The notes under the pieces were generated by a model. It did no database searches and had not been told where the DNA came from. It was given only the letters and a program-made list of their open reading frames with translations. Shown piece after piece: positions 4,248 through 20,862 of a stretch of DNA of 64,000 nucleotides; positions within the stretch are counted from its first letter, which is position 1, and every line of letters begins with the position of its first letter. The position numbers and the translations under genes were made by a program. Source of the DNA: an uncultured Clostridia bacterium. GTDB taxonomy: Bacteria > Bacillota > Clostridia > TANB77 > CAG-465. Location: positions 96,012 through 160,011 of the forward strand of contig CALXJI010000005.1 in NCBI GenBank assembly GCA_944388585.1. The letters run 5' to 3'.

Positions 4248-5926
4248 TAACCTTCATTATCGCCAGTCAAAAGACACTTCTTTGGACTATTTTTTTGGGC
4301 TTTTAAAAAGCCCAATTTAAAGTTAATCTCATCTATTTCATCAAATTTAAAATAAATTTGTAGTTTTACATTTTTTCTATTATTATCTATTTTTGTAACT
4401 ATTATCTTATCTACTAATAGTTCTAAATATAAATCTAAGTTTTCTCTTTTACTTAAATCTAACTCATCAACTATAACTTTTTTTAAATTTTCTATATACT
4501 TATCAAAGTTTTTCATTTCTTCTTTTTTTTGCTCGTTTTCTTTAACTTTTTCTTTTAAGTTATTTAATTCTATATTTAATTTGTCATTTCTTTCTTTAAA
4601 CTCTTCATCATCTATATAACCATTTAAGTTAAGATTTAATAACTTTTCTTTTTTATTGCTCACATTTTGCATCTTTTTTTCTAAATTAGTATATTCATTA
4701 TTAATCTTTAAGTCTAAATTATTTTTTTGATATATATTTAATAATTTATTTATTATTTTATTTTTATTCATTTCAAATTTAGAAAATACACTTTTAATAA
4801 TTTCATATAGTTCTTCTTCTAACAAAATTGGACTTGCACAAACTTTTACTCCACCATTATCATATCTAGCACATACCCAAACTGGTCTACATTTTCTTTT
4901 TGGTCCAGCTGACCTAATAAAATTGGTTTGGTGTTCACTACATATTAATTTTCCACTAAATCCATATCTATTAGAAAATTTACTTTTATCTGGATTATTT
5001 TCATAAAATTTTTTACTTCTTTTTTCAAAAATCTCATTAGCTTTATTCCAAAGTTCTTCACTCACAATTGGTGGCACTATACTCTCATCATCACATTTTT
5101 TTACTATCCAATCTTTTCTATCATTTCTTACTTGCTTGGAACTCCTATAATCTAATTTAGAAGTAGTATTTGAACAATAATATCCTTTATATTTAGGATT
5201 AACCAAACATCTTTTTAAATTTGTTGGACTAATACGAGTATTATTACTAGTCTTATATCCATTTTCATATAATATGTGTGATATTTTTTCAAATCCATAC
5301 TTGCCAGTAGCATATAGTTCAAATAGTTTTCTTACAACTTCTGCTTCTTTTTCATCTATAACAAGTTTTCCTTTATCTTTTACATATCCACGAATATTAT
5401 TGTTCCCCAATACTCTATTTTTTTCAACAGACCTTTTAAGACCAAACCTTACTCTTTCTGATAGCTTTCTTACTTCATCTTGTGCTATACTTGCCATTAT
5501 TGCAAGTCTTAATTCTGAGTCTGGTAGTATTGTATTTATGTTATCTGTCTCGAAGTACACTCCCACATTTCTTTCTAAAAGTTCTCTAGTATATTTTATA
5601 CTATCTAAAGTATCACGAGCAAATCTACTTATTTCTTTCGTAAGAATTAAATCAAATTTATCTTTTTTTGAGTCTTCAATCATATTTAAAAAATCTTCTC
5701 TTTTTTTTGTACTAGTTCCACTTATTCCCTCATCAACATATCCTTCAATATATGTCCAATTCGAAACACTTTTGATTTTATTTTCATAGTAAAACTTTTG
5801 ATTTTCTAAAGAATTTAGTTGATTTTCTTTTTCAGACGATACTCTTGCATAAAAAGTAACTCTTAAATTCAAGTCATATATGCTTTTACCTGACATCAAT
5901 TCTTTTCTTAGATTTGCAAAGCTCAT
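4196..5926 (-). CDS. Large serine recombinase (resolvase catalytic domain + recombinase domain + zinc ribbon + coiled coil)
   Basis: N-terminal YARVSSEKENQ catalytic serine motif; DEGISGTS; recombinase domain; Cys-rich zinc ribbon; K/E-rich coiled coil. The last ~16 codons and the stop lie in host dac-derived DNA beyond the GTCAT core. Confidence 0.9.
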   Translation of the reverse strand: MSFANLRKELMSGKSIYDLNLRVTFYARVSSEKENQLNSLENQKFYYENKIKSVSNWTYIEGYVDEGISGTSTKKREDFLNMIEDSKKDKFDLILTKEISRFARDTLDSIKYTRELLERNVGVYFETDNINTILPDSELRLAIMASIAQDEVRKLSERVRFGLKRSVEKNRVLGNNNIRGYVKDKGKLVIDEKEAEVVRKLFELYATGKYGFEKISHILYENGYKTSNNTRISPTNLKRCLVNPKYKGYYCSNTTSKLDYRSSKQVRNDRKDWIVKKCDDESIVPPIVSEELWNKANEIFEKRSKKFYENNPDKSKFSNRYGFSGKLICSEHQTNFIRSAGPKRKCRPVWVCARYDNGGVKVCASPILLEEELYEIIKSVFSKFEMNKNKIINKLLNIYQKNNLDLKINNEYTNLEKKMQNVSNKKEKLLNLNLNGYIDDEEFKERNDKLNIELNNLKEKVKENEQKKEEMKNFDKYIENLKKVIVDELDLSKRENLDLYLELLVDKIIVTKIDNNRKNVKLQIYFKFDEIDEINFKLGFLKAQKNSPKKCLLTGDNEGYDIAFNNGANRLWWTFI

Positions 5927-5949
5927 ATTAATTTTCCTCCAACTTTTGT

Positions 5950-6120
5950 ATAAATTTAACTACTTTTTGAAACTAGACTAAGTTCCTCTAGTATTTTATT
6001 ATTAGCATAAATATACATTTCGTAGGTTATATAATTTTTTTCATATAATCTTCTGTTAATTTTTTCTTCAATTTTCAACTCGTTCTTTTCATCTGTTAAT
6101 ATATTTAATTTATCTTTCAA
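5950..6120 (-). CDS. Small ORF (56 aa, TTG start, RBS AGGAGTGG) immediately upstream of and co-oriented with the recombinase gene; candidate regulator or directionality factor
   Basis: Own translation gives MKDKLNILTDEKNELKIEEKINRRLYEKNYITYEMYIYANNKILEELSLVSKSS. It ends 21 nt before the recombinase RBS GGAGG. Below the ORF-track size cutoff. Confidence 0.3.
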
Positions 6121-6214
6121 TATAACCACTCCTAGTTAAATCTTATTAAAGTTTATTATTTTTATTCTAATATAAAAATTATATTATATATATCCATATA
6201 TAGTTTTTTATTTT

Positions 6215-6305
6215 TGTACATTTTGTACATTGGTCTTATAAGTATTGGTACATAAACATTTGTTGTATTACATACATTTGTATCAATGTACAAATAAAAT
6301 GTACA
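6215..6305. repeat. Cluster of TGTACA hexamer repeats (iterons or operators) directly 3' of the primase-helicase gene
   Basis: TGTACA or GTACA at 6215, 6224, 6247, 6287 and 6300, plus CATACA and GTATCA variants. The reverse-complement arrangement tgtacaaaatgtaca recurs at 20428-20441. Confidence 0.5.
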
Positions 6306-9131
6306 TTAATCACAATTAGGTGGATTAGTTCCATAAGGTTGTAATTCTAAATATGGAACTTTATCTTTTTTTACTGCCCATACTATTTCCGTTTTATCTC
6401 TTGAAGTAGGACCTGGCATTTTCTTTCTAATAGTTGCTCTATCACTACCAACTTTTAAATATCCCTCATCTGATAAATGTTTTTGAAGTCCAGTTTTATT
6501 TATAGGAAATTTTATACCTTGTTGTGCATAAAACTTAGATACTTCATTTAGTACAGTTTCTGGGAAAAAATAATAATAGTTATTGTACTCATCTTTTGTT
6601 TCATCTACAAAACCTATAAGAGTTTTATTTTTATTATCTGTTAAATAAGACTCTTGCCAGTTTCTAACTATATATATTTTTCCGGTATTTTCAAGTTGAC
6701 TTATAGCATTAAAAAACATACTTATAGGTTTATTATCTTGTATTTTTAAAGTTTGCTCATTTGCTACAAAATTTAAAATATCCCAACTTTCTTTAAGTAG
6801 TTTCTCTTTATCTTGTTCGCTTATTATCTCATAAGATATTAGAAAGCTAATAAATAATTCATAAGATATTTGTAAGAAACATATTATTTCCGCGGTTCTC
6901 CCATGTAATAAATTATTTGTAATATCATTTCTATATTTTTCAAATTTATCCTTAGCATTATTTTTAATCTTATCAATGTTTGCTATTAGAACTTTAATAT
7001 ATTGTTTCATTGCATAAGATAATTTGTCTTTATTTCTTTGAAGTATAGTTAGTTTATCTAAATCTATACTATCTTTTTTTAAATCAATAATAAAACATCT
7101 AGCTAAACGGCTTTCTGATACCTCTGGAAATGATTCGCCAGTTACTAAACATAGACCTCGTGCTTTATAAGATTTTCTTAAAGTAACATCTACATTTAAT
7201 CTACCTCTAGCACTTCTGTCGCCATAGATAGCTATAACTTTTTCAAGAGTGTTTTTCATCTTTTTAGCCTCATTTGTTTCTGTACTAGGGTAGTAATCAT
7301 CTAATACTACCAAAGTGTCTGCTAATAAGTTACTTCTAACCTCAATACTATTTATTGTGTCTTTGCAACTGCATACAAAGCTATCTTTATCAAATCTACC
7401 AAAATGACAATTTAATAAAGCCGATAATGAACTCTTTCTACTACCACTTACTCCTACAACTGCAATTAAAAAATCTGGTACAATTCCTAAATCATCTAAT
7501 GATGACACTAAAGGAGCTAGATATGTAAAAGCAAATAATGGTAAGGTTATCTTTTTATCTGCTACATCTAAAATGCTATATGATAGTTGCAAACACTCTT
7601 TCAAATCATATTCTTGATTTGTAAATTCATATCTAACTAAACTATCATCAAGATTAACTTTTATAGTATCATCTCCACCAATATTTCCATTGTTGTACAA
7701 ATATACATACTTATCATTTTGTTTTATAAAACCAGTATGTGTATATACAACTTCTTTCTGCATATTTTTAGATACTATTTGTGTAACTTCACGAAGTTTA
7801 TCCTTATTACTTACTCCTGCATTTACTATTGGCGACATATCCCAAGTATTGTTTATTAACCATTTCATAGAGGTAAAATCTTCAATTTTTACTTCAATTT
7901 CATCTAATACATCACCATTACTCAAAACTGCTTTAATTTTATATACTGCTGATTTCTCTCCATTTCCATTATCATATATAATTACTTTACTTATAATTGG
8001 AACAAAATTAGATATTTTCTCTTTCTTTTCATATAGGCCATCTTCTGCAAAGACATAATTACTATTTTCTAGTAGTTCAATGTCCTTTTGATAATCATTA
8101 GGAATACTAGAGTTAGCTTTCTTTTTAACTTCTTTTTCTTTTACTTTTATTACATCTAGCTTATAAAAAATATCACTTTCATAAGCTATTGCTTTACCAC
8201 CAAAAAACATACTTGCCAAATTTGTTGGCTTAGAATCAGGATAGAATATACTTAGCTTGTCTAACAAATAATTAATAAAGCCTTTTGCTATTTCATAATC
8301 TGTTATTACTTCATTTAGTATATATACTAACCTCATCTTATGTTGTTTCTCGCTATGACTAAAACTATAATATGCAAATGTAGGTAATAGATTTATTTGT
8401 TTACAATAGTCAATAATCTTCTCTATTGTAATATGTCTTTTATCATCAGTAGTAAAATTTACTTTCTTTCCATTTTCTTCAATAGCATTATCTATATCTA
8501 TCATATATAGTTGTTGTCCTTTAAAATTTTCTTTAGCATTACCTTTAATACCTGATGGTATAGTTGTTTTTCCTAAAACAATGTTTTGTTTTATTTCATC
8601 TAGTGTATAGCCCTTAAATTGATTTTCATTAATCCTATTTTTTATACCTCCAACTTCATAACCTTGAGGCTTTGTAGAAAATTCAACTTCATCAAACATA
8701 CAAACTATTTTGTCTATTTTTTCTGCCACACTTACTTTAATAGCATTCTTAGATTTTGAATTATTTTGATTGGACTTCCTTTTAGATGTTGATTTACTAT
8801 ATGTAATATTATCATCTATTTGAAAATCTTTTTTAATAATATCAATAGCTTGTTCTTTAGAAACATTTTTATATCTTGCAACAAAATCTACAATATTTTT
8901 ACCAATAAAATTCTTATCTCCAAAATCACTTATATACTTATCTGATACACTAAAAGATGGGTTGGAATCCTTTCTAAATGGACTACTGTAGGCGATACTA
9001 TCGCCTCTAGCTATACCTTCTCCTAAATAATGTTCTACAACTTCTTTATTATCTAGAATACTACACAATTCTTCTATACTCACTTTTCTACCTCCTTTTA
9101 TTAAAAAGGAAACACACTTGATTTTTCGCAA
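6306..9131 (-). CDS. Replication protein: primase-polymerase (degenerate CHC2 zinc-finger-like N-terminus, DxD prim-pol motif) fused to a P-loop NTPase/helicase-like domain
   Basis: SSPFRKDSNPSFSV resembles the DnaG CHC2 motif CPFHxExTPSFxV but with Cys and His replaced. LYMIDIDNA prim-pol signature. Variant P-loop VVGVSGSRKSS. Size and architecture match Pri-Rep proteins of integrative elements. Confidence 0.55.
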   Translation of the reverse strand: MRKIKCVSFLIKGGRKVSIEELCSILDNKEVVEHYLGEGIARGDSIAYSSPFRKDSNPSFSVSDKYISDFGDKNFIGKNIVDFVARYKNVSKEQAIDIIKKDFQIDDNITYSKSTSKRKSNQNNSKSKNAIKVSVAEKIDKIVCMFDEVEFSTKPQGYEVGGIKNRINENQFKGYTLDEIKQNIVLGKTTIPSGIKGNAKENFKGQQLYMIDIDNAIEENGKKVNFTTDDKRHITIEKIIDYCKQINLLPTFAYYSFSHSEKQHKMRLVYILNEVITDYEIAKGFINYLLDKLSIFYPDSKPTNLASMFFGGKAIAYESDIFYKLDVIKVKEKEVKKKANSSIPNDYQKDIELLENSNYVFAEDGLYEKKEKISNFVPIISKVIIYDNGNGEKSAVYKIKAVLSNGDVLDEIEVKIEDFTSMKWLINNTWDMSPIVNAGVSNKDKLREVTQIVSKNMQKEVVYTHTGFIKQNDKYVYLYNNGNIGGDDTIKVNLDDSLVRYEFTNQEYDLKECLQLSYSILDVADKKITLPLFAFTYLAPLVSSLDDLGIVPDFLIAVVGVSGSRKSSLSALLNCHFGRFDKDSFVCSCKDTINSIEVRSNLLADTLVVLDDYYPSTETNEAKKMKNTLEKVIAIYGDRSARGRLNVDVTLRKSYKARGLCLVTGESFPEVSESRLARCFIIDLKKDSIDLDKLTILQRNKDKLSYAMKQYIKVLIANIDKIKNNAKDKFEKYRNDITNNLLHGRTAEIICFLQISYELFISFLISYEIISEQDKEKLLKESWDILNFVANEQTLKIQDNKPISMFFNAISQLENTGKIYIVRNWQESYLTDNKNKTLIGFVDETKDEYNNYYYFFPETVLNEVSKFYAQQGIKFPINKTGLQKHLSDEGYLKVGSDRATIRKKMPGPTSRDKTEIVWAVKKDKVPYLELQPYGTNPPNCD

Positions 9132-9284
9132 ATCTTATCATATAATATAATAGAAATGTAAAATAAAAGTGCATTTCCATAATTTTTTGAGTTGAAAGAA
9201 TTTTTTAGGGGCCTAATCTATAAAATTCTTTCTATTTTTTATATTATCAAACAAAGGTTTGTTTGTACATATTTCAAGTGATTT

Positions 9285-9881
9285 TTAAACAACAAAGTAA
9301 TCTTCACATTGACTAACATCTATTTCTCCCTCTTCAAGTTTGGCTACTTCTTGAAGTGTTGAAACATCTCCCACAAAATAGAAAATGTTATCTTCAAGTT
9401 GATTAAACTCACTTGAAGGTTGATATATAGTTGATTCTTGGGGAGTTGTAAGCTCCCAAAAACCAACTTTATATGAGTCATCAACTTTTACTCTACCTAT
9501 TTCTCTAAAAGAGTTGTATACCCTACGCATTCCACATCTATTGGAATACTGTAAAACTTCGCCATTCTTTTTAAAATATCCCAAGGAACTAACAATAGTT
9601 CCAGGAGTTATAGAATTGTCGCTATATCCATAGACTATGACTATTTGTCCATTAGCGAACTTCAATTTTAGTCTTGGAAGCTCGTTAGGGCCCATATCTT
9701 TTTTCTCTAGGAATACAGCAATATTTTCTGTAACTCTTACATATCCCTCATCAGTTTTTACTAATAATAGTACATCTTGATTTTGTTGTACTGCTTCAGC
9801 TTTTATTTGCTGAAATCTTTCTATTATAGGCTTATACATGCCTATCACTCCTTTCTTTTTTACAATATACACTTTTTTCAA
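9285..9881 (-). CDS. Hypothetical protein (198 aa)
   Basis: Long ORF with coding-like composition; no recognisable motif. Confidence 0.45.
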   Translation of the reverse strand: MKKVYIVKKKGVIGMYKPIIERFQQIKAEAVQQNQDVLLLVKTDEGYVRVTENIAVFLEKKDMGPNELPRLKLKFANGQIVIVYGYSDNSITPGTIVSSLGYFKKNGEVLQYSNRCGMRRVYNSFREIGRVKVDDSYKVGFWELTTPQESTIYQPSSEFNQLEDNIFYFVGDVSTLQEVAKLEEGEIDVSQCEDYFVV

Positions 9882-10098
9882 TGTGCGACTTACAAGTAGC
9901 TTAAATTGCTATTGTAACTTTTATTATTTCGTAGTATAATATTTATATATTTTTACTACGCATATCACGTGATAAAACAATTATAAGCGACAAAAACCTT
10001 GAAGTCAATGCATTTTCTTTGAATTTGTTAAAGTGTAGGAGTAGTAAAAAATGTTGAAAAAAGTGAATTTTTTTACTACGCAATTTAGGAGGAAAAAG

Positions 10099-11262
10099 AT
10101 GTATATAAATATAATAGATAACAAAACCTATACAAATGATTTAATTATAAGCGAAGTGAAATATGGTACAGCACTTATTGATTTTTTAAATACAGATTTA
10201 ACAGACTATATTACAAAAATCACAGAATTTTCTGGAAAGTTTATTTATGAAAATGAAAATGAAATAAAACCTTATAATGTTGATTATAAAAATAATGATA
10301 TTACTAGTTACCCAAACTGTTTAGATGCATATAGTTACTTATGTAAATATGTTAGATTTATAAGAACAATTAAAAGCAGTTGCAAATATGTTAATCTGCA
10401 TATTAATGAACTAGAAGAAAATTTAAAGGAAGTTGCAAAATATGATATAGATGAATTTAATAAAAGTATTACTAATACTAGTCCTAATATGAACGAAACT
10501 ATACATAGCTATGTTAAATATCTGATAGAATATTTAATACTTTGTCAAAAAGCATTGAAGAAAGCAGTTTATTATATACTTGATGTCAATAACACAAATC
10601 TAAATGATTTATCATTAAACAAAAGACTAGCTTACTTCCAATGTAAAAATGATTTAAGTAACTTACATATTATATTAACATATATGACTGAACAAGAATT
10701 ACTAGATATGATATTTATAAATAATAAAATTAATGTTTCTGATAATACTTTTGTTTTTAAAGAAAAAGATAACCTTATAGGACTCTCAGATAAGCAATTA
10801 CTAAACAGAATAAAAAGCTCTAATGTATCTATTAGTTATAATAAATATTTTAGAACTATAAAAGAACTAGGCATTTTTGAAATTGAACAAATGATTTTGA
10901 ATAAAACACAAGTAAAAAGATGTGAATTTTGTAATAATTACTTTATTTCTAAAGACAAAAAGAAAAAAACTTGTAGTACTATTTGTGGAAAAAAAGTCAA
11001 TTATCAAAAGACTAAGCAAGATGAACTACAAAACTTATATAACAGAACTTTGGAAAGTATGCAAAAAGGTATGAAAAATAATAAAGATAAATACGAACCT
11101 GTAAAAGAATATTTTAAATCGGTATATAATAGTGTAAAGGAAATGAATAAAAATTCTAATGAAATTAAAAAATTTAAAAAAATGTGTGTAGATATAAAAG
11201 CAAAAACACCTAAATATAATTATAGTGTTGATTATTTAAAAAATCTATGGGAAAAGGAATAG
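10099..11262 (+). CDS. Hypothetical protein with C-terminal CxxC...CxxC zinc ribbon (start moved to ATG 10099 after AGGAGG)
   Basis: CEFCNNYF...CSTICGKK near the C-terminus. The only long plus-strand gene in this part of the element. Confidence 0.5.
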   Translation: MYINIIDNKTYTNDLIISEVKYGTALIDFLNTDLTDYITKITEFSGKFIYENENEIKPYNVDYKNNDITSYPNCLDAYSYLCKYVRFIRTIKSSCKYVNLHINELEENLKEVAKYDIDEFNKSITNTSPNMNETIHSYVKYLIEYLILCQKALKKAVYYILDVNNTNLNDLSLNKRLAYFQCKNDLSNLHIILTYMTEQELLDMIFINNKINVSDNTFVFKEKDNLIGLSDKQLLNRIKSSNVSISYNKYFRTIKELGIFEIEQMILNKTQVKRCEFCNNYFISKDKKKKTCSTICGKKVNYQKTKQDELQNLYNRTLESMQKGMKNNKDKYEPVKEYFKSVYNSVKEMNKNSNEIKKFKKMCVDIKAKTPKYNYSVDYLKNLWEKE

Positions 11263-11314
11263 TGGTATGACTATTCCTTTTTATACCGTATGTCAAAACT
11301 AATCATTTTTCCAA

Positions 11315-12016
11315 CTAATTTTTTCCACAATTTTTTTGTTCTAAGAGTTGCACAACAATGTCTGGATATGAATTTTGCATTTGAATAATACTACTATATT
11401 GAAGTTCAACCATTTCAAATTTTTTTGAATCTTCTATTTGTTCACCAAATACTAATTTGTATATTTTAATTATAATATTATGAGCATAATCTAATAAAAT
11501 AGGAATTTCATTATATGCAGGTATTTCATCAGCTTTAAAACTTTTTATTCCCAAATCATAAGATTTATCCAAATGTGCAACATTTTTATCCCTCAAGGTT
11601 TTAAGATTATCTAAAGCTTTCATATTTTCCAATTTTTCTAATTCAGATTTAGCATATTTTATTATTTCTGAATTTTTTTTATTAAGAAGTTTATTACATT
11701 GAACACAATTTAACATATAAAATACTGTAATTGAATCATTACTAGAGTCATTATCATAAATTTTAGCTAATTTCATAAATAAAGAGTATTGTAATCCATC
11801 AATGACAGAACAATAGTACTCTTTATATTTAGGCATTTTACTAAAATCCATACACATTCTATCAAATAATAAATATTGTGATTTAGCAAAAAAAATCTCT
11901 CTATATAGCAAGTCAACTCTCTTTTTAAACTTGTCTATTTCACATTTTTGAATTTTTGTTTTAGTTTCTTCCATAATACTCACGCCGAATTTATATATTC
12001 GACAGCCTCCTCTCAT
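11315..12016 (-). CDS. Hypothetical protein with a HEPN-like Rx4-6H motif (RDKNVAH); possible Abi-like cargo
   Basis: Predominantly alpha-helical; RDKNVAHLDK fits the HEPN catalytic motif. Start ambiguous (M1 or the internal MEETKTK). Confidence 0.35.
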   Translation of the reverse strand: MRGGCRIYKFGVSIMEETKTKIQKCEIDKFKKRVDLLYREIFFAKSQYLLFDRMCMDFSKMPKYKEYYCSVIDGLQYSLFMKLAKIYDNDSSNDSITVFYMLNCVQCNKLLNKKNSEIIKYAKSELEKLENMKALDNLKTLRDKNVAHLDKSYDLGIKSFKADEIPAYNEIPILLDYAHNIIIKIYKLVFGEQIEDSKKFEMVELQYSSIIQMQNSYPDIVVQLLEQKNCGKN

Positions 12017-12366
12017 TTTTGGTTATATTTTACCATATTATATTTTTTTGAACAACTTTTTACAAAAATAAAAAATATATATAACAATAGTTAAAAAATA
12101 AGTGTTACTGTTTTTATCTTATAACTAGGTAAGATAGCAACACATTTTTTTATATCATATTTTATTTTTCCAATTGGATTTAAAAATCATACTCAATGTA
12201 TCACATTAGAAATTCTGATTTATTCAAAGAAAATGTGTTATTTGTTTATATTTCAATACTTAGAAAGCATTTTATAAAAATAACTTTTAGTAAATGTAAT
12301 AAAAAATATGTACGAATTACATTCAATGTATTATAATGTATAAAAATTTAAGGAGATGTATGTAGT

Positions 12367-12936
12367 ATGAATTTAGTAGAACCAATTAGAGATTTGAACA
12401 AAATCGAAGAAATGAAAAAAGTATTATTAGAACAAGGAAAAGGCAAAAGAAATTATCTTATTTTCAAAGTAGGTATAAATATTGGTATAAGGGTATCAGA
12501 TATTATAAAGCTTAAAGTAAGTGATATTAGATATGAAAATGGTACTATGCGAGATGACATTACAATTATAGAAAAGAAAACAAATAAAAAGAAGACATTT
12601 AGATTTAATATCGAATTAAAAAAAGAACTAGAAGATTACACTAAACAAATGCAACAATATGAGTATATTTTTAAAAGTAGGAAAGGAGCTAATCAACCTC
12701 TTACGCGCACGCAAGTATATAGATTTCTTAATGATGCAGCAAAAATGGTTGGTATCACTGATAGTATAGGAACTCACACTATGAGAAAGACCTTTGGTTT
12801 CCACAACTATAAAAAATATGCTGATGTTGCTATGTTGCAAACAATATTTAATCATAGTAGCCCTAGTATCACACTTCGATATATAGGTATATCACAAGAT
12901 GAAATCAACAATATGTATGATGACTTTTGCTTATAA
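12367..12936 (+). CDS. Short tyrosine recombinase, FimB/FimE-like (catalytic domain only, 189 aa)
   Basis: KRNYLIFKVGINIGIRVSDIIKLKVSDI parallels FimB ARNYCLTLLCFIHGFRASEICRLRISDI. HxxR box in GTHTMRKTFG. His and Tyr in FNHSSPSITLRY. Confidence 0.8.
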   Translation: MNLVEPIRDLNKIEEMKKVLLEQGKGKRNYLIFKVGINIGIRVSDIIKLKVSDIRYENGTMRDDITIIEKKTNKKKTFRFNIELKKELEDYTKQMQQYEYIFKSRKGANQPLTRTQVYRFLNDAAKMVGITDSIGTHTMRKTFGFHNYKKYADVAMLQTIFNHSSPSITLRYIGISQDEINNMYDDFCL

Positions 12937-12967
12937 GTTAATATAATTTTATATCTTAATAATAAAA
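12930..12967 (+). repeat. 38-bp repeat copy A (cttataagttaatataattttatatcttaataataaaa), followed directly by aaaagtgtctt (12964-12974), which matches the element end-arm motif
   Basis: Near-identical (3 mismatches) to 20232..20269. The 18-bp core taatataatttaatatct also occurs at 17781..17798. Confidence 0.6.
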
Positions 12968-13011
12968 GTGTCTTAAAATATAAATATGAATATCACTTTT
13001 AGACAAATTAG

Positions 13012-13055
13012 TCAAAAAATGAGAGTAGTACCATAGTATTACTCTCATTTATTCT
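13012..13055. terminator. Bidirectional rho-independent terminator between convergent genes
   Basis: aatgagagta - 12-nt loop - tactctcatt, a perfect 10-bp stem flanked by A-run and T-run. Confidence 0.6.
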
Positions 13056-13066
13056 ATGTAATAAGC

Positions 13067-13603
13067 TTAAAAATTTGATGAATTTAAGCGATTTATCACA
13101 TTTTCTTTTTTTATATCTACAACCTCTTTATAAGTAATTCCATCAGCATTAGGTGCAAATCCATAATAAAACTTACTTCCATACAATTTTTTTAGTGTTT
13201 GATTTGTTGTAGTACATTCTACAATATAAATTCCATTTACCTCTTCAATTGTTTTAACTGTAAGTTCATTCTCTCTACACTCTTCTCCTAAATACTGTCT
13301 TGCATGATTCTCTGCCCAATATCTATTTTCTTGTAATGGAGTAGGAAAGAAAATAGGTTGCACAATAAATTTCCAACCACAAAATATAAAAATAATAACT
13401 ATAATTATATAAATAATTAATCCTTTTGTACTTGAATTATTTGTCACATTATTATTATTATTATCTTCTTCAACATTGAGTTTATTTTCAACATTTTGTT
13501 CAACATTACTATTATTTTCTTCATTTTTACTTATAGTTTGTCCACACTTATCACAAAATTTACTATCATCATCAATTTGACTTCCACAATTTTTACAATA
13601 CAT
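13067..13603 (-). CDS. Zinc-ribbon (CxxC...CxxC) membrane-anchored hypothetical protein
   Basis: MYCKNCGSQIDDDSKFCDKCG N-terminus, an Asn-rich linker, one TM helix and a C-terminal globular domain. Confidence 0.5.
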   Translation of the reverse strand: MYCKNCGSQIDDDSKFCDKCGQTISKNEENNSNVEQNVENKLNVEEDNNNNNVTNNSSTKGLIIYIIIVIIFIFCGWKFIVQPIFFPTPLQENRYWAENHARQYLGEECRENELTVKTIEEVNGIYIVECTTTNQTLKKLYGSKFYYGFAPNADGITYKEVVDIKKENVINRLNSSNF

Positions 13604-13620
13604 AACCTTTCAACCCCTTT

Positions 13621-14655
13621 TTAATTTTTATATTCTTTATTTTCAATAAATAAGTCTAATATTCTTTCTAATTCTTCCATTAGATTTAATAAATCACTAA
13701 CTTTATATTCTTCACTTAATTTTATCTTTGCTAAAATCATTGACTCATTAGCTTGTCTTTTATTAAATTTTTCAAACTTTATATTACTTTTATTTGAAAA
13801 ATATTTTTCTATTTTATCTTGTAATTTATTTCTTTCATCTTCATTATATTTTAAATTACCATTTTCTTTATTTTCAAAGCGACCTCTAATTCTTAATTCA
13901 TATTTACTTTTATTTATATTTGTTTCAAGATATAAATAATCTAAGAAGTAATTCTTATCTAATCCTCTTATATACCAAGTATAAAATACACTACCTCTAA
14001 CTCTACCAACACCACATTTATTTATTTCATTTTTTTCACTATGACTACAATATACATTTGGTAATTCATATTGTAGATATTGTTCCATACTAATTTCTTT
14101 CAATGAAAACTTTTTAATATTCTTACACTTATATTCTATCAAACTTAAATAATTGTAATAATCAATGTAAATATCATTTTTTATATGATAATTTTCCATT
14201 ATTTCAAGCATAAACTTTCTATCAATTAATACATCTACATCAATTTGATTTGGTTCATAAAACATCTTATAATATGTAGTTATTATATTTTCTTCCTTTA
14301 TTCCTTTATTAATTAATTTATTTTTATATTTGTTTATTTGATTACTATGTTCTGAAGTTAGTTTCTTATCTTCAATTATAATGTATATTGTTTCATTATT
14401 TTCATTTTCAAAACTTATTAAAACATCTATATTTTTATCTTGTTTTAATATTTTTACATTATTATAATCATTGAACTTTAAATTTCTTTTAGTGTTTTTC
14501 TTATTATACTTTTCTATAATTTTATCTAAAAACTTTTTTGATACTTCATACAATTCTGAATTTTCTTCTTTGTGATTAATCCACTCTACCAACCAACAAA
14601 TAAAAGCATCTTGACTAAGCTCCTTAGTCGCATATTTGAATATGTTATTTTCCAT
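13621..14655 (-). CDS. Hypothetical protein, candidate PD-(D/E)xK nuclease fold
   Basis: NIDVLISF ... IYIIIEDKKLTSEHSNQ gives a D...ExK arrangement. RBS GGAGG at 14662-14668. Confidence 0.35.
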   Translation of the reverse strand: MENNIFKYATKELSQDAFICWLVEWINHKEENSELYEVSKKFLDKIIEKYNKKNTKRNLKFNDYNNVKILKQDKNIDVLISFENENNETIYIIIEDKKLTSEHSNQINKYKNKLINKGIKEENIITTYYKMFYEPNQIDVDVLIDRKFMLEIMENYHIKNDIYIDYYNYLSLIEYKCKNIKKFSLKEISMEQYLQYELPNVYCSHSEKNEINKCGVGRVRGSVFYTWYIRGLDKNYFLDYLYLETNINKSKYELRIRGRFENKENGNLKYNEDERNKLQDKIEKYFSNKSNIKFEKFNKRQANESMILAKIKLSEEYKVSDLLNLMEELERILDLFIENKEYKN

Positions 14656-14675
14656 ATAAAAACCTCCTCATATTA

Positions 14676-14692
14676 TATGACAATATGTCATA
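14676..14692. promoter_or_regulatory. Palindromic operator candidate TATGACA-ata-TGTCATA in the divergent promoter region
   Basis: 7-bp perfect inverted arms between the RBS of 13621..14655 and the XRE gene. Confidence 0.4.
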
Positions 14693-14763
14693 CTAATTAT
14701 ACCAATTTTCAACTTTTTTTACAACCCTTTTATTGTTATAATTTAATAAAAGGAGTAGATAGA

Positions 14764-15132
14764 GTGGATAAAATAAAGAAAAACAAAGAAATTTCACCCA
14801 AAAAGAATTTACAAAAAATTAGGGAAGATAATCATTACTCACAAAGAAAAGTCGCTGAAGATAATAATACTTATCAAGAAGTTATATCTAGGTTAGAGTC
14901 TGGAACTAGGACTTCAAATATTGAGTTTATAATGCAATTAGCTAACTATTTTCATTGCTCTACAGACTATCTTTTAGATTTAACAAATGACCCAACTCCA
15001 ATATCTATTTTATCTTCTAAAAGTGATTTAAGCGAAAAAGAAAAGTATATTTTAAGAGAATATAATTCTTTAAGTGATGATAACAAACTAAGATTAGAAG
15101 GCATATTAATTGCATTAAAAAGCATACAATAG
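14764..15132 (+). CDS. XRE-family helix-turn-helix transcriptional regulator (GTG start after AAGGAG)
   Basis: LQKIREDNHYSQRKVAEDNNTYQEVISRLESGTRTSNIEFIMQLANYFHCSTDYLL is a classic HTH_3. The upstream part of the track ORF overlaps the convergent gene and lacks an RBS. Confidence 0.7.
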   Translation: MDKIKKNKEISPKKNLQKIREDNHYSQRKVAEDNNTYQEVISRLESGTRTSNIEFIMQLANYFHCSTDYLLDLTNDPTPISILSSKSDLSEKEKYILREYNSLSDDNKLRLEGILIALKSIQ

Positions 15133-15249
15133 TGTAATAATACTTTTGTATGCTTCTTTTTTCTCCTTTATATCTTAAATTAACTTTCTACTAATAGATA
15201 TAAATTTATATAACTAAGTATAGAAAGTTCTTCTAAATAAAACCTCATT

Positions 15250-15600
15250 TCAATGGTTATTATTTAATTTTATAAAGTTATCAAAAAATATCTTAAACAC
15301 TTTTTCATTATCTATCTCATAAAAGTAATCTATAAAATCATATTCCTTATTATAACTATCTTTCTTAAATATACCAACAATATTTATAGCGAAAAAACCA
15401 CTATGTGTGTTAAAAAATTCTTTTACTACTTTTTCTTTTATATCTCCAATAATACATAAGAATAGTGGAGGTATATTATAGTTTAAATCTTTAAGTTCAT
15501 CACTATATACAATTTTTACATTATCATTTAAAACTATATCTTTTATTATTTCTTTACCAAATACTCCTAATGGAATTACCACTATATCTTGAATTTTCAT
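15250..15600 (-). CDS. Hypothetical protein (116 aa), 4-bp overlap with the upstream gene
   Basis: ATGA overlap coupling with 15597..15974. Confidence 0.45.
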   Translation of the reverse strand: MKIQDIVVIPLGVFGKEIIKDIVLNDNVKIVYSDELKDLNYNIPPLFLCIIGDIKEKVVKEFFNTHSGFFAINIVGIFKKDSYNKEYDFIDYFYEIDNEKVFKIFFDNFIKLNNNH

Positions 15601-15974
15601 CTCTCCTTTTTTATTTCATAAACAATAAATTTTACATTAAGTACAATACTAATACCCTCTAATATTCTAAATGTTTCATTATTTGTTCTTTCCTTAAATC
15701 TATTATTGTTTTTAATTTTAGATAGGTTAATTATTACTATACTATTATTAAAGTTTTTTAGTTCTTTTATTAAGTTATCTAATTTATATGTAGTAAAATA
15801 TTCAACATTATCTTTACCATAAAATATATCATCATCTTTATATAACAATACTTTTGAAGTAGGTAGGTTAAATTCTTTTCTTATAATATCTACATCTTTC
15901 TTTTCCTTATCAAATATTTCCATTTTATATATACTTTCCTTTTTAATTCCTACATCTAACAAAAATAACCCCAT
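15597..15974 (-). CDS. Hypothetical protein (125 aa)
   Basis: Operon partner downstream of the HTH-WYL-like gene. Confidence 0.45.
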   Translation of the reverse strand: MGLFLLDVGIKKESIYKMEIFDKEKKDVDIIRKEFNLPTSKVLLYKDDDIFYGKDNVEYFTTYKLDNLIKELKNFNNSIVIINLSKIKNNNRFKERTNNETFRILEGISIVLNVKFIVYEIKKER

Positions 15975-16071
15975 AATGAGCCTCCAAACTTATTTATTTA
16001 GAGTATATCATTTTGAAGTTATTTTGTATATGAATTTTATACTATGAATTTTTCGCTGGTCTAAAAATGTA

Positions 16072-16761
16072 TTACTTATTTTTTTCTTCATCTAAAAACT
16101 CACACTCTTCATCTAAAATTTTTATATCTTTCATACTACTTAATAAAATTCCAATATTATTATTGAGTGTATTATTTGTTCCTATAACTATATAATTAAA
16201 AGGTGTAAGTACTTTAAATTTCCTATACACAATATATTGTGGAGAGTATATAATATTCTTTCCATTATGTATAAATTGTATCTTTTTCTTTTCTTCTATT
16301 GCTTGTGAAACTATTTCTAAACTATTTACTAATTCCCAATTCTTTGTTTTTTGTTCTTTCATTTTTGCTATATTTGATTTTAGTTTTTCTCTATCAAATA
16401 TATTAATTTGTTTTTCTAATTTATTTACCAAAAGATTTGATGTTTCTTCATTTATATCATTAGCTAACTTTATTTGATTTATAATCATAATAATTTCTCC
16501 TAATGTGAAGTCTATATCTATATTTTTAATATAATAATAACCTTTGCGATTATCATTATATGTAGATATATCATAACCAAACTTTTCTATAAGTAAGTTT
16601 ATATTTCTTCTTATAGTTCTACTATCTATATTTACATCATAATCTTTCTTTATCAATTCTTTTATATCATTACAACTTAATATGTGTTCATCATCACTAT
16701 ATTTTTTTAGTGTATTCAACACATATAGTATATTTCCTTTATTTTCATTTCCTTTTTCCAA
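16072..16761 (-). CDS. Putative transcriptional regulator, N-terminal HTH (HTH_11-like) plus C-terminal WYL-like domain (BrxR/CapW-like architecture)
   Basis: ILYVLNTLKKYSDDEHILSCNDIKELIKKDYDVNIDSRTIRRNINLLIEKFGYDI fits the DeoR/HTH_11 pattern. C-terminal IQFIHNGKNIIYSPQYIVYRKFKVLTPFNYIVIG is WYL-like. Confidence 0.4.
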   Translation of the reverse strand: MEKGNENKGNILYVLNTLKKYSDDEHILSCNDIKELIKKDYDVNIDSRTIRRNINLLIEKFGYDISTYNDNRKGYYYIKNIDIDFTLGEIIMIINQIKLANDINEETSNLLVNKLEKQINIFDREKLKSNIAKMKEQKTKNWELVNSLEIVSQAIEEKKKIQFIHNGKNIIYSPQYIVYRKFKVLTPFNYIVIGTNNTLNNNIGILLSSMKDIKILDEECEFLDEEKNK

Positions 16762-16827
16762 TTAAACCACCTTTCTATATTATACAAAATTAGTTTGTAA
16801 ATCACAAGTAACAAGAGTAACACTTAT

Positions 16828-17061
16828 TTATAACATACCTTTTCTATTTAAAGTTCTTACAATTTCACTTCCTAAACCTGTTCTTAAAGTTTTAAATATA
16901 GAATTAAAATATATACTCTCTTTTCTATATTTGGTATAGATATAGTCATTACAATTACTCTTATGAGTTTCAATATATAGTTTTATTCTCTTTTGAATTT
17001 CACTATTTTGTGGAATATTACTTAGTATTATTTCTACAATATCTAAATCATCTTCTCTCAT
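16828..17061 (-). CDS. Hypothetical protein (77 aa)
   Basis: 4-bp overlap with the upstream ORF. Confidence 0.4.
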   Translation of the reverse strand: MREDDLDIVEIILSNIPQNSEIQKRIKLYIETHKSNCNDYIYTKYRKESIYFNSIFKTLRTGLGSEIVRTLNRKGML

Positions 17062-17387
17062 AGTAGTCTCCTTTTTAAATCAAATCTTTCCATATACTTC
17101 TTTATTTTTTCTTCACTTAAAGATATAGTCTCTCCATTTTCTTGACCTACCACTAAAAAATCTCCAACTATAATATCTCCAAATTCATATAAAACTAAAT
17201 TAGGAGATAGACTTAATAATTTACCCTCATCATTTATAATAATATCTACATCATCTTCTAACTCTACAATATCTATTAGACCACCTACATACTTTTGTAG
17301 AGTAGATAGGTTATTTTCTATCTCTATTACTTTTGGTTGTTCAAACACTTTTACTAAAATACATCTTAATTTTTCCTTTTTACTCAT
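17058..17387 (-). CDS. Hypothetical protein (109 aa)
   Basis: RBS-preceded ORF; first gene after a 465-bp repeat-rich intergenic region. Confidence 0.4.
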   Translation of the reverse strand: MSKKEKLRCILVKVFEQPKVIEIENNLSTLQKYVGGLIDIVELEDDVDIIINDEGKLLSLSPNLVLYEFGDIIVGDFLVVGQENGETISLSEEKIKKYMERFDLKRRLL

Positions 17388-17853
17388 TTTTTATCTTCCT
17401 TTATCATAAATTTAAACTTTTTATTCCATTGATTCCATATTAAACCTAGATTAAATTTTATATCTTTTTATATTAGTTATATATCTTTAATACAAAAGTT
17501 TCTTTAAATTAAACCTAGATTATCACTTTTGAAAAACAATTAAAATATGGTATTAATACTAAAAAATGACCCACATAGAGTCTATCTCTATATGAGTCTA
17601 TCTACTAAAATATACAACAAACTAAAATCTACTACCACTATAAACACCACCTTTAAACTTAAAACTAAACCTCTTATCTTAGTATAATTTTAAATTGTGA
17701 TTTTTCAAAAGTACATACTTTTTCTTTAAGTTTTAGAAAGTTTTAAGTGGGTGTCCATTTAAAGAACTTTACCTATTAAGTAATATAATTTAATATCTAT
17801 AAGTAGAAAGTTCCTTAGGATTAAATCTGGAATTAGTGGGTTATATTTAAAGT

Positions 17854-18045
17854 TTAATTCTCTCCTTTATTGTATTGGAATAAATATCTACTTTTTATAA
17901 ATTCATCTAAATCATCTTCTCTAATCATAAAACCTTTACCCATATAGATAGCTTTTAGTTTCTGCTCTGCAATATAACTTCTTATAGTGTGAGGTGTTAC
18001 TTTTAAAATGTCTGCTACTTCTTTTACTTTGTAAATATTAGTCAT
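17854..18045 (-). CDS. Excisionase-family / MerR-like HTH DNA-binding protein (63 aa)
   Basis: VKEVADILKVTPHTIRSYIAEQKLKAIYMGKGFMIREDDLDEF matches the excisionase-family DNA-binding pattern. Confidence 0.6.
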   Translation of the reverse strand: MTNIYKVKEVADILKVTPHTIRSYIAEQKLKAIYMGKGFMIREDDLDEFIKSRYLFQYNKGEN

Positions 18046-18121
18046 TGTGTTATCACTCCTTTTATTTAGATATACTTAATATATATCTTTCATATAAATA
18101 TATAGAAAGTGTGATAAAATC

Positions 18122-19696
18122 TTATTTTTTATATAGTTTAGATAATACAATAACCTTTTTATTAAGGTATAAAGAATAAGTCTTTTTCTCTTTTTGATAA
18201 GATAGAATAGAGGAGATAGTTTTATTATTAAGAGAAATATATTTTATACCAATTTTAGATAAGTCTTTAATAAGTTGAGTATCTTTATTAAGATGTCTCC
18301 TTACAAACTTCTCAGTACCATTTAAAATATTATTATAAGATAATCCATTGTTTTTTCTTTCTTCATTTAAAACTCTTAGAGAAGTAATTAAATCTTCAAT
18401 AGTAATATAACCATACTTTTGTAAATCAGTGTTATTAGATAAAATAGTGTATATATATTCAATAGTTTTAATATCTCTATTTTTATATTTATTCTCTAAA
18501 TTACTATTTCTATATATTAGTTGAGAAGAAGTGTTACCCGTGTTCCTTGTAAGTAGTGAGTAAGTTATATTTTTATAATAATTTAATAAGTCCTTAGATA
18601 TAAAGTCTATATTTATAAAATCTTCTTTTAATAAATATGGAATAATTAGAGTAGTAGGTCTTTGTTTAGATTTAAAATAGTTAGTATTATTTTTTACACT
18701 ATCTAATCTTTTAAATATATTTAGTAAGTAGAGTATTTTTATTTTCTTACTATAACCTCTAATTTCTCTAAATATATCTTTTATAGATAGAGTAAGTAGT
18801 ATATTATCTTCTATTATTAAGTAATTATTAGGAGTATGTAAATAATTATATTTTAGTTCTTTTATTATAGGTATAAAATCTATCTTTTCTAAGAGTAGTT
18901 TAAAATTACTATTTTGTTTTAGACTAGTTAGTTTGTTTATTACTTCTAGATTATTTATTATAGTTCTATGTACTATATATCTATCATAAGAAGATATTAT
19001 TCTATCTATATTAGTAGGAGAAAATGCACTTTTTTTAGTATATTTTTTTACATTACTAAAAGTAACTCTATTATTACTCTCTCTAACTATAGAAGTATTT
19101 TTTTTAGTTAGAGTTTTAACATTATTAAATAATAAATAATCACAATACCTACAACCAAACCATTTATCTATATTTTTATTACTATCTTTTTTTATAACAC
19201 TATCTATTATGTACTTATTCATCTTTTGTAAATATCTAGTGTCTTTCTCATATTGTTGGTTAATCTTTACAATATGTTGCAGTTTAAGTAACTCATTAGA
19301 AGAATAAACCACAGTATATTGTTTATTATCTCTATGTTTTATATTATCTAAGTGTGATACTAATTCTAAATTACAAAGTCTATTATCTAATTTATCTTTA
19401 TTAATGTGATTTACCTCATAATCTTTATCTAATAATTCCTTTAATTTAACATCATACCTACTATAAAATTCTATTATTACTCTTTGTAGAGTAGTTACAA
19501 CATTATCTAATTTTCTTAGAACTAAATAATCATTTTCATTTACTCTTACATTGTGTAGTTCCATTATATTTAACAAATATCTAATCAAACTACTATCATT
19601 ATCAATTTTTCCTGAAACACTATTATTTATCATATTATAAATTAAGGTTGTTGTTTCATCATAATACAATAAAAGTGTCATATTATCTTTTATCAT
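18122..19696 (-). CDS. Hypothetical protein (524 aa), N/K/Y/I-rich
   Basis: Long uninterrupted ORF. Its DNA is conspicuously rich in TAG, AGTAG and TTAG on the non-coding strand, unlike flanking genes. Confidence 0.45.
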   Translation of the reverse strand: MIKDNMTLLLYYDETTTLIYNMINNSVSGKIDNDSSLIRYLLNIMELHNVRVNENDYLVLRKLDNVVTTLQRVIIEFYSRYDVKLKELLDKDYEVNHINKDKLDNRLCNLELVSHLDNIKHRDNKQYTVVYSSNELLKLQHIVKINQQYEKDTRYLQKMNKYIIDSVIKKDSNKNIDKWFGCRYCDYLLFNNVKTLTKKNTSIVRESNNRVTFSNVKKYTKKSAFSPTNIDRIISSYDRYIVHRTIINNLEVINKLTSLKQNSNFKLLLEKIDFIPIIKELKYNYLHTPNNYLIIEDNILLTLSIKDIFREIRGYSKKIKILYLLNIFKRLDSVKNNTNYFKSKQRPTTLIIPYLLKEDFINIDFISKDLLNYYKNITYSLLTRNTGNTSSQLIYRNSNLENKYKNRDIKTIEYIYTILSNNTDLQKYGYITIEDLITSLRVLNEERKNNGLSYNNILNGTEKFVRRHLNKDTQLIKDLSKIGIKYISLNNKTISSILSYQKEKKTYSLYLNKKVIVLSKLYKK

Positions 19697-19802
19697 AGTA
19701 ATTAACTCCTTTACTTAAAATAAACTAAAAGTATATACACTTTCTAAGTAAATATATATAATTACTATCAAAAAATTAATAAAATGACACTTTTTAAATT
19801 GT

Positions 19803-20120
19803 TTAATCTTCCTTATTCTTATTATTTTCAAATACTTCACACATTAGAGTAATGCCGGTAGTAAGTCCATCTCTAAAATATAAGTTATCCATAAAAGAAT
19901 TTCTTGCATTAGACATATCCATATAATCTTTTACACAATTTAGTATATTATCATAATCCTTTTTATCTATTGTGTCTTTTAAATACTTATATCTTTTTTC
20001 TAATTTTTCTCCAAATTCATTATAATCTTTTCTTTCATATTTAGTCATCGAAGGTAACCTGCCCTCTAATACATCAAATAGTTGTTGTAAAATTTTTTGT
20101 TCTTCAACTCCATTTTCCAT
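19803..20120 (-). CDS. Hypothetical protein (105 aa)
   Basis: First gene of the long minus-strand operon inside the element's right end. Confidence 0.45.
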   Translation of the reverse strand: MENGVEEQKILQQLFDVLEGRLPSMTKYERKDYNEFGEKLEKRYKYLKDTIDKKDYDNILNCVKDYMDMSNARNSFMDNLYFRDGLTTGITLMCEVFENNKNKED

Positions 20121-20231
20121 AATGTAAATTCTCCTTTCTATGAGGTAAATTATATATAGTTGGAATAGAGAAGTACATATTTTTTCTACATTTTATAAAA
20201 TTGATTCCACATTTAATTGTGGAGTATTTTA

Positions 20232-20269
20232 CTTATAAAATAATATAATTTAATATCTTAATAATAAAA
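20232..20269 (+). repeat. 38-bp repeat copy B (cttataaaataatataatttaatatcttaataataaaa)
   Basis: Direct repeat of 12930..12967. Confidence 0.6.
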
Positions 20270-20349
20270 ATTAACTAGAATTAAACCTCATTAACTCTAG
20301 TTATATTTTTAATTAAATATTTGTATATAAATTTATAAGAAAATATTTG

Positions 20350-20441
20350 TGTACATTAAAATACATTAGTTGTACAAATATATGTATATTAGATTTTATT
20401 TATTTTTATATAGTTTGAAGTTACTTAGTACAAAATGTACA
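20350..20441. repeat. Second cluster of TGTACA hexamers, in the promoter region of the 19803..20120 operon
   Basis: TGTACA at 20350, 20371 and 20436, GTACA at 20428. gtacaaaatgtaca is the reverse complement of tgtacattttgtac at 6215-6229. Confidence 0.5.
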
Positions 20442-20485
20442 AAAAAATTTATATATTATTTTATATTAATATATATAAAAAAAAG

Positions 20486-20543
20486 AACAGTATTTCTACT
20501 ATTCTAAAATTTTACGTATACATATACTGTGTAGAATACTGTT
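20486..20543. terminator. Long inverted repeat (aacagtatttctac ... gtagaatactgtt, 13-14-bp arms, 31-nt spacer) followed by a T-run, just inside the element's right end
   Basis: Read directly from sequence. The hairpin is flanked by an A-run and a T-run, so it can act in both directions. Confidence 0.4.
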
Positions 20544-20592
20544 TTTTGGTCATTTCTTCTATTCTTTCTTCTCTCAAAATCAAAAGTGTCTT

Positions 20593-20862
20593 TTAATAGG
20601 TCATTACTTTAGTAACTGATGCTGGTAACATATGTTCATTTTCATTATTTGCATATAGTATTTTCCCTGTAGTAGGTTCCATTAAAATCTGAGAATAAGA
20701 CTCAAAAGTAAAAGACGGATTTGCAACAGTTGAAATACTACTTTCAATTCCCTCATTTTTTACTTTATATAAATACCCTACTCCCAAAATATAATTACAA
20801 TTTATTACATTTATCAATAACATACAAACTATTATTTTAAAAAACTTATTCACATATTCCAC
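20593..20862 (-). CDS. D-alanyl-D-alanine carboxypeptidase, 5' part (signal peptide plus SxxK active-site motif), truncated by the element
   Basis: Signal-peptide-like N-terminus. Ends ...MLPASVTKVMTY*; the active-site SVTK is followed immediately by the junction. Confidence 0.8.
   Translation of the reverse strand: MEYVNKFFKIIVCMLLINVINCNYILGVGYLYKVKNEGIESSISTVANPSFTFESYSQILMEPTTGKILYANNENEHMLPASVTKVMTY

Follow-up and report, generated by a model that had tools for sequence, protein, structure and literature searches.

Introduction

Why would an island that has its own integrase carry a second, short recombinase as well? Does this protein move a module of its own, or does it serve some other need of the element? 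The question is raised by a 64,000-nucleotide stretch of DNA from an uncultured Clostridia bacterium (assembly GCA_944388585.1, contig CALXJI010000005.1, positions 96,012 to 160,011), here called the window, in which the gene for a 189-aa tyrosine recombinase sits in an island of about 16.4 kb (about 4196–20592). An earlier note on this DNA had described the protein as FimB/FimE-like and had proposed that a pair of direct repeats marks a separately excisable block of cargo next to it. We compared the locus with sister elements, which were traced via recombinase homologues at 79–89% identity and carry the same genes in the same order; contigs are referred to by L numbers. To judge by these comparisons, the gene belongs, as an ordinary member, to an accessory recombinase family that is very common on Firmicutes plasmids, temperate phages, satellites and integrative elements. 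By analogy with known resolution sites, its cassette may be an autoregulated multimer-resolution cassette, a reading to which we assign a probability of about one half.

A tyrosine recombinase without a core-binding domain

The earlier note was right to see in the 189-aa protein a bare tyrosine-recombinase catalytic domain. PF00589 (Phage_integrase) matches residues 12–174 with 90.8 bits (gathering cut-off 27.1, E 1.1e-25), and the AlphaFold2 model forms a single domain (pLDDT 90.3, pTM 0.85). The HxxR, H and Y residues recognized at the time belong to a full catalytic R-K-H-R-H plus Tyr set: in an alignment of 27 sequences (homologues at 55–89% identity), K71, H137, R140, H163 and Y172 are invariant and R42 is present in 26. 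Among PHROG families, it is assigned to phrog_216 'integrase' with an E value of 2.6e-58. Comparison of the window with L098, an element of the same cassette type (type I, defined below), gives a dN/dS of 0.16 at a dS of 0.37, as expected under purifying selection. By these measures the protein is the product of a real recombinase gene that is still selected.

Where does it belong among known recombinases? FimB (24% identity) and FimE (22%) align with it end to end (FimB residues 16–189, FimE residues 11–184). The FimB/FimE-like label therefore stands for architecture, that is, for size, collinearity and lack of a core-binding domain. It fails for family membership, with 41.9 bits against a cut-off of 221 for NCBIfam PRK09870 and 44.5 against 222 for PRK09871. 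Xer models outscore those of FimB/E yet also stay below their cut-offs (XerA 94.1 against 220 bits, XerD 70.9 against 329.6, XerC 68.7 against 335). Matches also include 4a8e and 5hxy, and Foldseek places the model closest to the catalytic domains of XerA (5hxy, E 2e-7) and XerH (5jjv). The TM-score is 0.73 when normalised on the query and 0.42–0.53 on the targets, so that the model covers only the C-terminal half of XerA and XerH. Sequence matches to Xer proteins are likewise confined to their C-terminal domain, for example to chain residues 109–274 of 292. In sequence and fold the protein is thus Xer-like, and its likeness to FimB/E is one of architecture only; it is best filed in the tyrosine recombinase superfamily, within a large family that lacks the core-binding domain. 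The pBAS2 'XerD', considered as a further member, was rejected, as it is a full-length Xer of another family.

A common family with a conserved upstream palindrome

The search for homologues returned 3243 proteins, the best 120 of which are 184–225 aa long, mostly 186 aa. By tblastn, the family is present on 2606 plasmids, with hosts that include Enterococcus, Bacillus, Lactiplantibacillus, Lactococcus and Clostridium, and in 233 phages. Among the phage carriers are phi105 and streptococcal prophages, in which the gene immediately precedes terminase. In streptococcal prophages such as Javan310 (L105, 6001–6543), the small recombinase ends the replication module; in Javan310 it is directly preceded by a tRNA-like sequence and followed by the terminase genes. 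No conserved partner gene was found among 78 loci, the largest cluster of neighbours accounting for 9 of them.

The family site is a near-perfect 30-bp palindrome, AATGTAACACAAT-N4-ATTGTGTTACATT, with 13-nt arms; in 44 of 80 relatives it is located about 160 bp upstream of the start codon. A 10-4-10 palindrome occurs upstream of the gene at 48 of 80 genome loci, compared with 16 of 1374 control windows (1.2%), and of these 48 palindromes 43 fall between −145 and −187, most often at −161 to −164. Thirty-nine distinct sites yield the consensus AATgTAAcAcAATa-nn-tATTtTgTTAcATT, and in none of them is the centre palindromic. Half-sites of the same type overlap the −35/−10 region of the gene across the family, and their sequence follows that of the core: GTAA-type cores are accompanied by 45 GTAA-type and 13 TTAA-type proximal half-sites, TTAA-type cores by 21 TTAA-type and 3 GTAA-type ones. 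From this covariation we would argue that a single protein recognises core and proximal half-sites alike. The small plasmids pRSJ9_1 and pPM8, both of them complete, contain exactly one full site each, beside the gene. The upstream palindrome was not found in the phage examples phi105 and Javan310, and for this reason the role of the recombinase in phages may differ.

The recombinase cassette in its island

How is this family represented in the window? The description of the gene as a second recombinase, of the tyrosine type, inside the element is borne out: the island's own integrase is the serine recombinase listed in Table 1, which is inserted in a Peptidase_S11 gene in the window, L098 and L099, while a full-length tyrosine integrase is found at the end of L014, which adjoins rpsI/rplM, and of L102. 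Given these integrases in the window and in sister elements, we take the 189-aa protein to be an accessory recombinase of the island and not its integrase.

All these elements share a backbone. In the window it comprises genes for a 344-aa protein, an XRE protein, proteins of 116, 125, 229 and 77 aa, DUF3846, HTH_17, a 524-aa HNH_3 protein and DUF6809. Its identity to the window is 96.2% in L014, 95.4% in L098 and 96.9% in L100, and L102 is syntenic at about 73%. The region at 9.3–13.5 kb is, in contrast, a variable accessory region, which holds the recombinase, AbiU2 and a changing set of zinc-ribbon, rotamase and SHOCT genes.

Within the variable region, the recombinase gene travels as part of a cassette. 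Against L014, L100 and L102, alignment is to the same strand for window positions 12249–13016 and to the opposite strand for the DNA on either side; the cassette is therefore inverted relative to the backbone. It is inverted in this way in the window, L098 and L099 (type I) and co-directional with the backbone in L014-16, L018 and L100-102 (type II). Cassettes are 78–84% identical to that of the window while their flanks are 91–99% identical (L014, L100). The difference is plainest in L100, whose flanks are 97–99% identical and whose cassette is only 84% identical, and because of it the comparison points to a variable region that has been exchanged between element variants, not to a live switch. 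Cassette orientation is constant within each lineage.

What is left of the family site in the window? The half-site cluster upstream of the gene consists of ATGTAATA (12294–12301), ATGTAC (12308–12313), the palindrome TACATTCAATGTA (12318–12330) and a −10 element TATAAT (12332–12337). No full canonical site was found elsewhere in the island; upstream of the gene there are only split arms and isolated half-site-like motifs, namely GTGTTAC at 12102, GCAACACA at 12137 and ATGTGTTA at 12231, the latter two of which form the inverted repeat of the earlier note. A near-canonical palindrome, GTAACAC-N9/10-GTGTTAC, is retained in the type II sister elements at about −140 to −170, irrespective of the upstream gene. 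A decayed counterpart of this type II palindrome, GAGAGTAACAC-N10-GTGTTACTTTC, is present in the window as the hairpin at 13017–13050. The palindrome lies 5' of the recombinase gene in type II; in the window and in L098 the equivalent hairpin sits 3' of it. The spacing is 4–6 nt in the window versus 9–10 nt in type II and in the family consensus, and the hairpin now looks like an ordinary terminator because this spacing has shortened and a T-run follows. Could the L014 palindrome, too, be a plain terminator? We dropped this idea, as the palindrome has kept the family spacing and stays conserved even where the genes upstream of it differ.

Multimer resolution as a candidate function

In the mechanism that we propose, recombinase monomers would bind both arms of the palindrome, which would serve as the crossover site. 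They would also bind the promoter-proximal half-sites, which would act as accessory sites and, at the same time, allow repression of the recombinase's own gene. If the excised or replicating element dimerises, the two directly repeated sites would recombine and monomers would be restored. A single site per replicon combined with an autoregulated recombinase is what we would expect of multimer or cointegrate resolution, and the recombinase is most likely a housekeeping resolution enzyme.

Two groups of known systems offer parallels. XerA/dif, XerH/difH and XerS/difSL likewise combine one recombinase with one palindromic site, often adjoining the gene, and they provide the best sequence and fold matches of the 189-aa protein. 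The half-site ATGTAA resembles the XerD arm of Firmicutes dif. Unlike these systems, the 189-aa protein lacks a core-binding domain, scores far below all the equivalog cut-offs of 220–335 bits, is found on mobile elements instead of near a chromosome terminus, and has no link to FtsK.

The second parallel is TnpI of Tn4430 and Tn5401 with its IRS. TnpI is a protein of 284 aa that keeps its N-terminal domain. Like the recombinase discussed here, it is a single tyrosine recombinase in Firmicutes mobile DNA that works at a site beside its own gene. The Tn4430 IRS core contains two inverted 14-bp motifs separated by a 4-bp spacer, with a cleavage stagger of 6 bp, and is complemented by accessory motifs (PMC2847244). 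The geometry of the family site appears to match this IRS (13-4-13 against 14-4-14): in both cases inverted motifs of 13–14 bp surround an asymmetric 4-bp spacer, and accessory copies of the motif lie nearby. There are differences as well. TnpI serves a Tn3-family transposon, whereas the family here has 186–189 aa, consists of the catalytic domain only and occurs on plasmids, phages and islands; its accessory half-sites are about 95 bp from the core and lie over the promoter, and the likeness rests on site geometry. Moreover, the core site is missing in the window.

Several observations weigh against multimer resolution. A literature search found no experiment on any member of the family, nor a functional or other paper on its short tyrosine recombinases, so that the case for the proposed function is one of architecture and analogy. 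Of the 80 loci, about 40% are without the upstream palindrome, as are phi105 and Javan310, and the 30-bp palindrome could be only an operator. In the window, selection acts on the gene even though no canonical site is present, and the only hint that the excised element replicates is a weak primase-like match of a 941-aa protein. Finally, a 91% match between two repeat copies, A and C, that is specific to type I elements is left unaccounted for by this reading.

A wider interpretation, which we advance tentatively, concerns the family as a whole. The family may be an unrecognised autonomous module that provides general multimer resolution for thousands of Firmicutes plasmids, phages and islands, and that may have been rewired in this island to new targets such as the repeat units A–E described below. 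Such a module may comprise the recombinase without core-binding domain, the 13-4-13 palindrome and the accessory half-sites that overlap the promoter; rewiring may have come about through inversion of the cassette and loss of the canonical site in the island lineage.

Other possible activities of the recombinase

Could the cassette itself be mobile and capture genes, with the recombinase inserting or inverting its own cassette and recruiting for example AbiU2 into the variable region in an integron-like or hot-spot manner? Both orientations do occur in otherwise near-identical elements, the cassette is located in the sole region where AbiU2, rotamase, SHOCT and zinc-ribbon genes vary, and across the family no neighbouring gene is conserved. 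Mobility of this kind nevertheless seems unlikely. There are no conserved inverted or direct repeats at the cassette ends, the breakpoints lie outside the palindrome, orientation is fixed within a lineage, and a cassette of 84% identity between flanks of 97–99% fits homologous exchange between variants, not flipping in place.

An altogether different possibility is that the protein is no conservative recombinase and instead nicks at the upstream palindrome, acting as a replication initiator or a relaxase of an atypical kind, in the manner of TcpM (IntP) on the Clostridium perfringens plasmid pCW3, or that it is mainly a DNA-binding regulator. An autoregulated gene preceded by an inverted repeat is the classic layout of oriT and relaxase, too, some relatives are found in conjugative-type contexts with TraG and sortase, and 1230 of the 2606 plasmids are typed non-mobilizable. 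TcpM, in turn, derives from a tyrosine recombinase, belongs to a clostridial mobile element and has a cis site upstream of its gene. It differs in being a protein of 266 aa that is annotated as a MobM-type relaxase, and as a relative it proved only remote: identity is 23% over 151 residues (29.6 bits), profile comparison gives a probability of 45%, and the alignment ends before the His/Tyr box. We consider this activity improbable, given that pRSJ9_1 encodes its own MOBP relaxase and MobC, that the whole RKHRH-Y set is conserved as in a true recombinase, and that the 13-4-13 geometry matches recombination cores.

Is the protein, then, an invertase like FimB/E or RecV? Two segments come into question, the short one between the 13-nt inverted repeats upstream of the gene (12139–12151/12227–12239) and a 2.5-kb segment between repeat units D and B, which are 82% complementary over 51 nt. 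The upstream repeat had been reported as 10 bp (12139–12148/12230–12239) with a spacer of 81 bp; it is present, with arms that are really 13 nt long and a spacer of 75 nt. With AbiU2 on one side and the divergently oriented recombinase gene on the other, it contains the half-site-like AACACA and is conserved, being complementary at 12 of 13 positions in the window and at all 13 in L098. Together with the FimB/E architecture, this speaks for an invertase. Yet both segments have one orientation in all 14 related contigs, which come from independent samples, although minority orientations would need reads to be seen; the suggested inversion at 12149–12229 was seen in none of the 14. The protein scores far below the FimB/E cut-offs, a loop of 75 bp is very short for synapsis, and the split arms (12137–12146/12230–12239) deviate from the family consensus at an invariant position. 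As for the two small family plasmids examined, with one full site each they are unable to support inversion. DNA inversion is therefore, in our judgement, quite improbable.

Repeat units A–E and the 7.3-kb block

The repeats on which the excision proposal was built are real. The 38-mer at 12930–12967 recurs on the same strand at 20232–20269 with 3 mismatches, two matches being obtained in 0 of 100 shuffles, and the 18-bp core is found again at 17781–17798. When the repeat was defined by repeat search, MAFFT alignment and an nhmmer profile, it emerged as five intergenic units of about 65 nt, all within 12.9–20.3 kb of the island. The recombinase gene is not flanked by repeats: copy A abuts its 3' end, and there is no equivalent on the 5' side. 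Over the 64-kb window the five-unit profile detects nothing further of significance (next match E 0.34), so the repeats are element-specific and not general genomic repeats, the latter having been named as a possible refutation. In related genomes, copy A is found in all sister elements, and B and D, with their dyad-symmetric outer arms, are conserved in position in L014 and L102.

What are these units? Single-strand DNA folding was no better than that of shuffled sequences (z +0.44, +0.90, −1.89, −0.87 and +0.80), which speaks against an attC-like, integron-type nature. No known RNA family (Rfam) was found in 4–21 kb, and a promoter/terminator scan showed no enrichment of promoter-like sites (81 found, 86.8 expected). 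Copy A contains a match to ATGACT-16-TATAAT, which is uninformative at 22% GC. Because the units lie before or after backbone transcription units, we regard them as probably regulatory or module-boundary sequences, and probably not as recombination sites; regulatory sites, the fallback of the earlier note, remain a plausible description. The motif aaaagtgtctt, which had been linked to the inverted arms of the att sites, is indeed found in copy A (12964–12974); its only other occurrence is at 20582–20592, beside attR (two matches in 1 of 100 shuffles), and attL holds its reverse complement at about 4271–4280. The link to att is probably coincidental, since copy A of L014, an element whose tyrosine integrase acts elsewhere, has the motif as well.

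Does the recombinase join the direct repeats A and C and excise the 7.3-kb block as a nested module? The 91% match of A and C over 43 nt, the position of copy A against the recombinase gene and the confinement of the repeats to the element speak for it, but this excision has become hardly credible, given five repeat copies of which one is inverted, repeats unlike the family's conserved site that lack its 10-4-10 dyad and do not fold significantly as single strands, and a block that is no cargo but a conserved backbone, 95–97% identical in sister elements with other integrases. In type II elements, A and C are inverted relative to each other and only about 70–74% alike, and the 7.3-kb block is unchanged. 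A protein identical to the 189-aa recombinase occurs in 204 blocks of the assembly collection, and the 10 contigs listed of 23 with the identical protein, from different samples, are collinear with the window at 97–99.9% identity and show no A × C deletion; such a deletion would have been retrieved, because it leaves the recombinase protein unchanged. Scans for deletion or circle junctions gave one contig in JGI metagenomes, in the parental arrangement, and none among viral contigs, which is weak evidence as the organism is barely represented in both.

Further features of the island

Coordinates are collected in Table 1. The closest genome match to the window is L017, an uncultured Clostridia metagenome-assembled genome with 99% identity. 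The island splits the Peptidase_S11 (D-Ala-D-Ala carboxypeptidase) gene into a C-terminal part (3286–4257) and an N-terminal part (20593–20862), and this layout, combined with the serine recombinase, resembles that of intervening elements whose excision restores a gene. One backbone, 73–96% identical, is paired with two unrelated integration modules and insertion sites; to judge by this, the integration module appears exchangeable. On the inner side of the integrase module and of attR, the backbone is bordered by inverted repeats of about 75 nt that contain TGTACAAAATGTACAAAAA (6147–6228/20414–20487). L014, with its tyrosine integrase, keeps these bounding repeats (1383–1412/16714–16743, 30 nt, 87% complementary).

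Table 1. Positions of the recombinase gene, its candidate sites, the repeat units and the surrounding modules in the window.
Feature	Position	Strand	Basis or remark
Large serine recombinase, island's own integrase	4196–5926	−	Overlaps junction with split Peptidase_S11 gene
Left arm of 13-nt inverted repeat, AACACATTTTTTT	12139–12151		Contains half-site-like GCAACACA
Right arm of 13-nt inverted repeat, AAGAAAATGTGTT	12227–12239		75 nt from left arm
Recombinase cassette: gene with its promoter region and, on the 3' side, ~80 nt of conserved non-coding DNA with copy A	12249–13016		BLAST breakpoints against L014, L100 and L102
Promoter-proximal half-site cluster	12294–12337	+	Same arrangement upstream of homologues across the family
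Short tyrosine recombinase gene, catalytic domain only	12367–12936	+	Open reading frame of 189 aa
Repeat copy A (contains 38-mer)	12921–12986	+	Travels with the cassette in all sister elements
Hairpin AATGAGAGTAGTAC-cata-GTATTACTCTCATT	13017–13050		Terminator of 178-aa gene
Conserved backbone of the element family (earlier 'cargo')	13541–20478	−	Identity and synteny with sister elements; domains
Repeat copy D, inverted	15169–15230	−	Between convergent XRE and 116-aa genes
Repeat copy E, partial	17456–17519	+	70–130 nt upstream of DUF3846 gene
Repeat copy B	17764–17831	+	Dyad-symmetric outer arms AGAACTTTAC / GTAGAAAGTTC
Repeat copy C	20224–20289	+	100–170 nt upstream of DUF6809 gene

Between the gene for a 403-aa protein and the recombinase cassette lies AbiU2, an abortive-infection gene of the HEPN type (11315–12016) that is found only in the lineage of the window. 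The 941-aa protein (6306–9131) has no Pfam or NCBIfam match; its weak PHROG matches include the DNA primase family phrog_1139 (E 1.9e-4), a primase-like similarity that hints at an element able to replicate. In L099 an extra DnaB_C helicase gene (14800–16140) is inserted between the 116- and 125-aa genes, and the 344-aa gene is absent; the boundary near repeat unit D fits the notion that repeat units mark module junctions. The only variant among the collinear contigs is a tandem duplication of about 165 bp in L002 (15374–15560; window 17580–17744), located between repeat units E and B in the intergenic DNA that separates the HTH_17 gene from the DUF3846 gene. In L001 (15678–17328), the 524-aa HNH_3 gene is called as 215 aa though the DNA is collinear, so that a frameshift or stop is likely.

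Significance

For this locus, the picture of an element within an element has been removed as unsupported, and the backbone can now be told apart from the variable accessory region at 9.3–13.5 kb, with AbiU2 and the recombinase cassette. Among the families that carry the label "site-specific integrase" on plasmids and prophages of Gram-positive bacteria, that of the protein is one of the commonest. Its conserved palindrome, together with the half-sites that covary with it at the promoter, provides a concrete candidate target and makes the function of the family testable. If the proposed role in resolution is true, annotation pipelines could cease to count this recombinase family as integrases or as markers of integrated elements, and so small a recombinase, with its site of about 30 bp, would be a compact tool.

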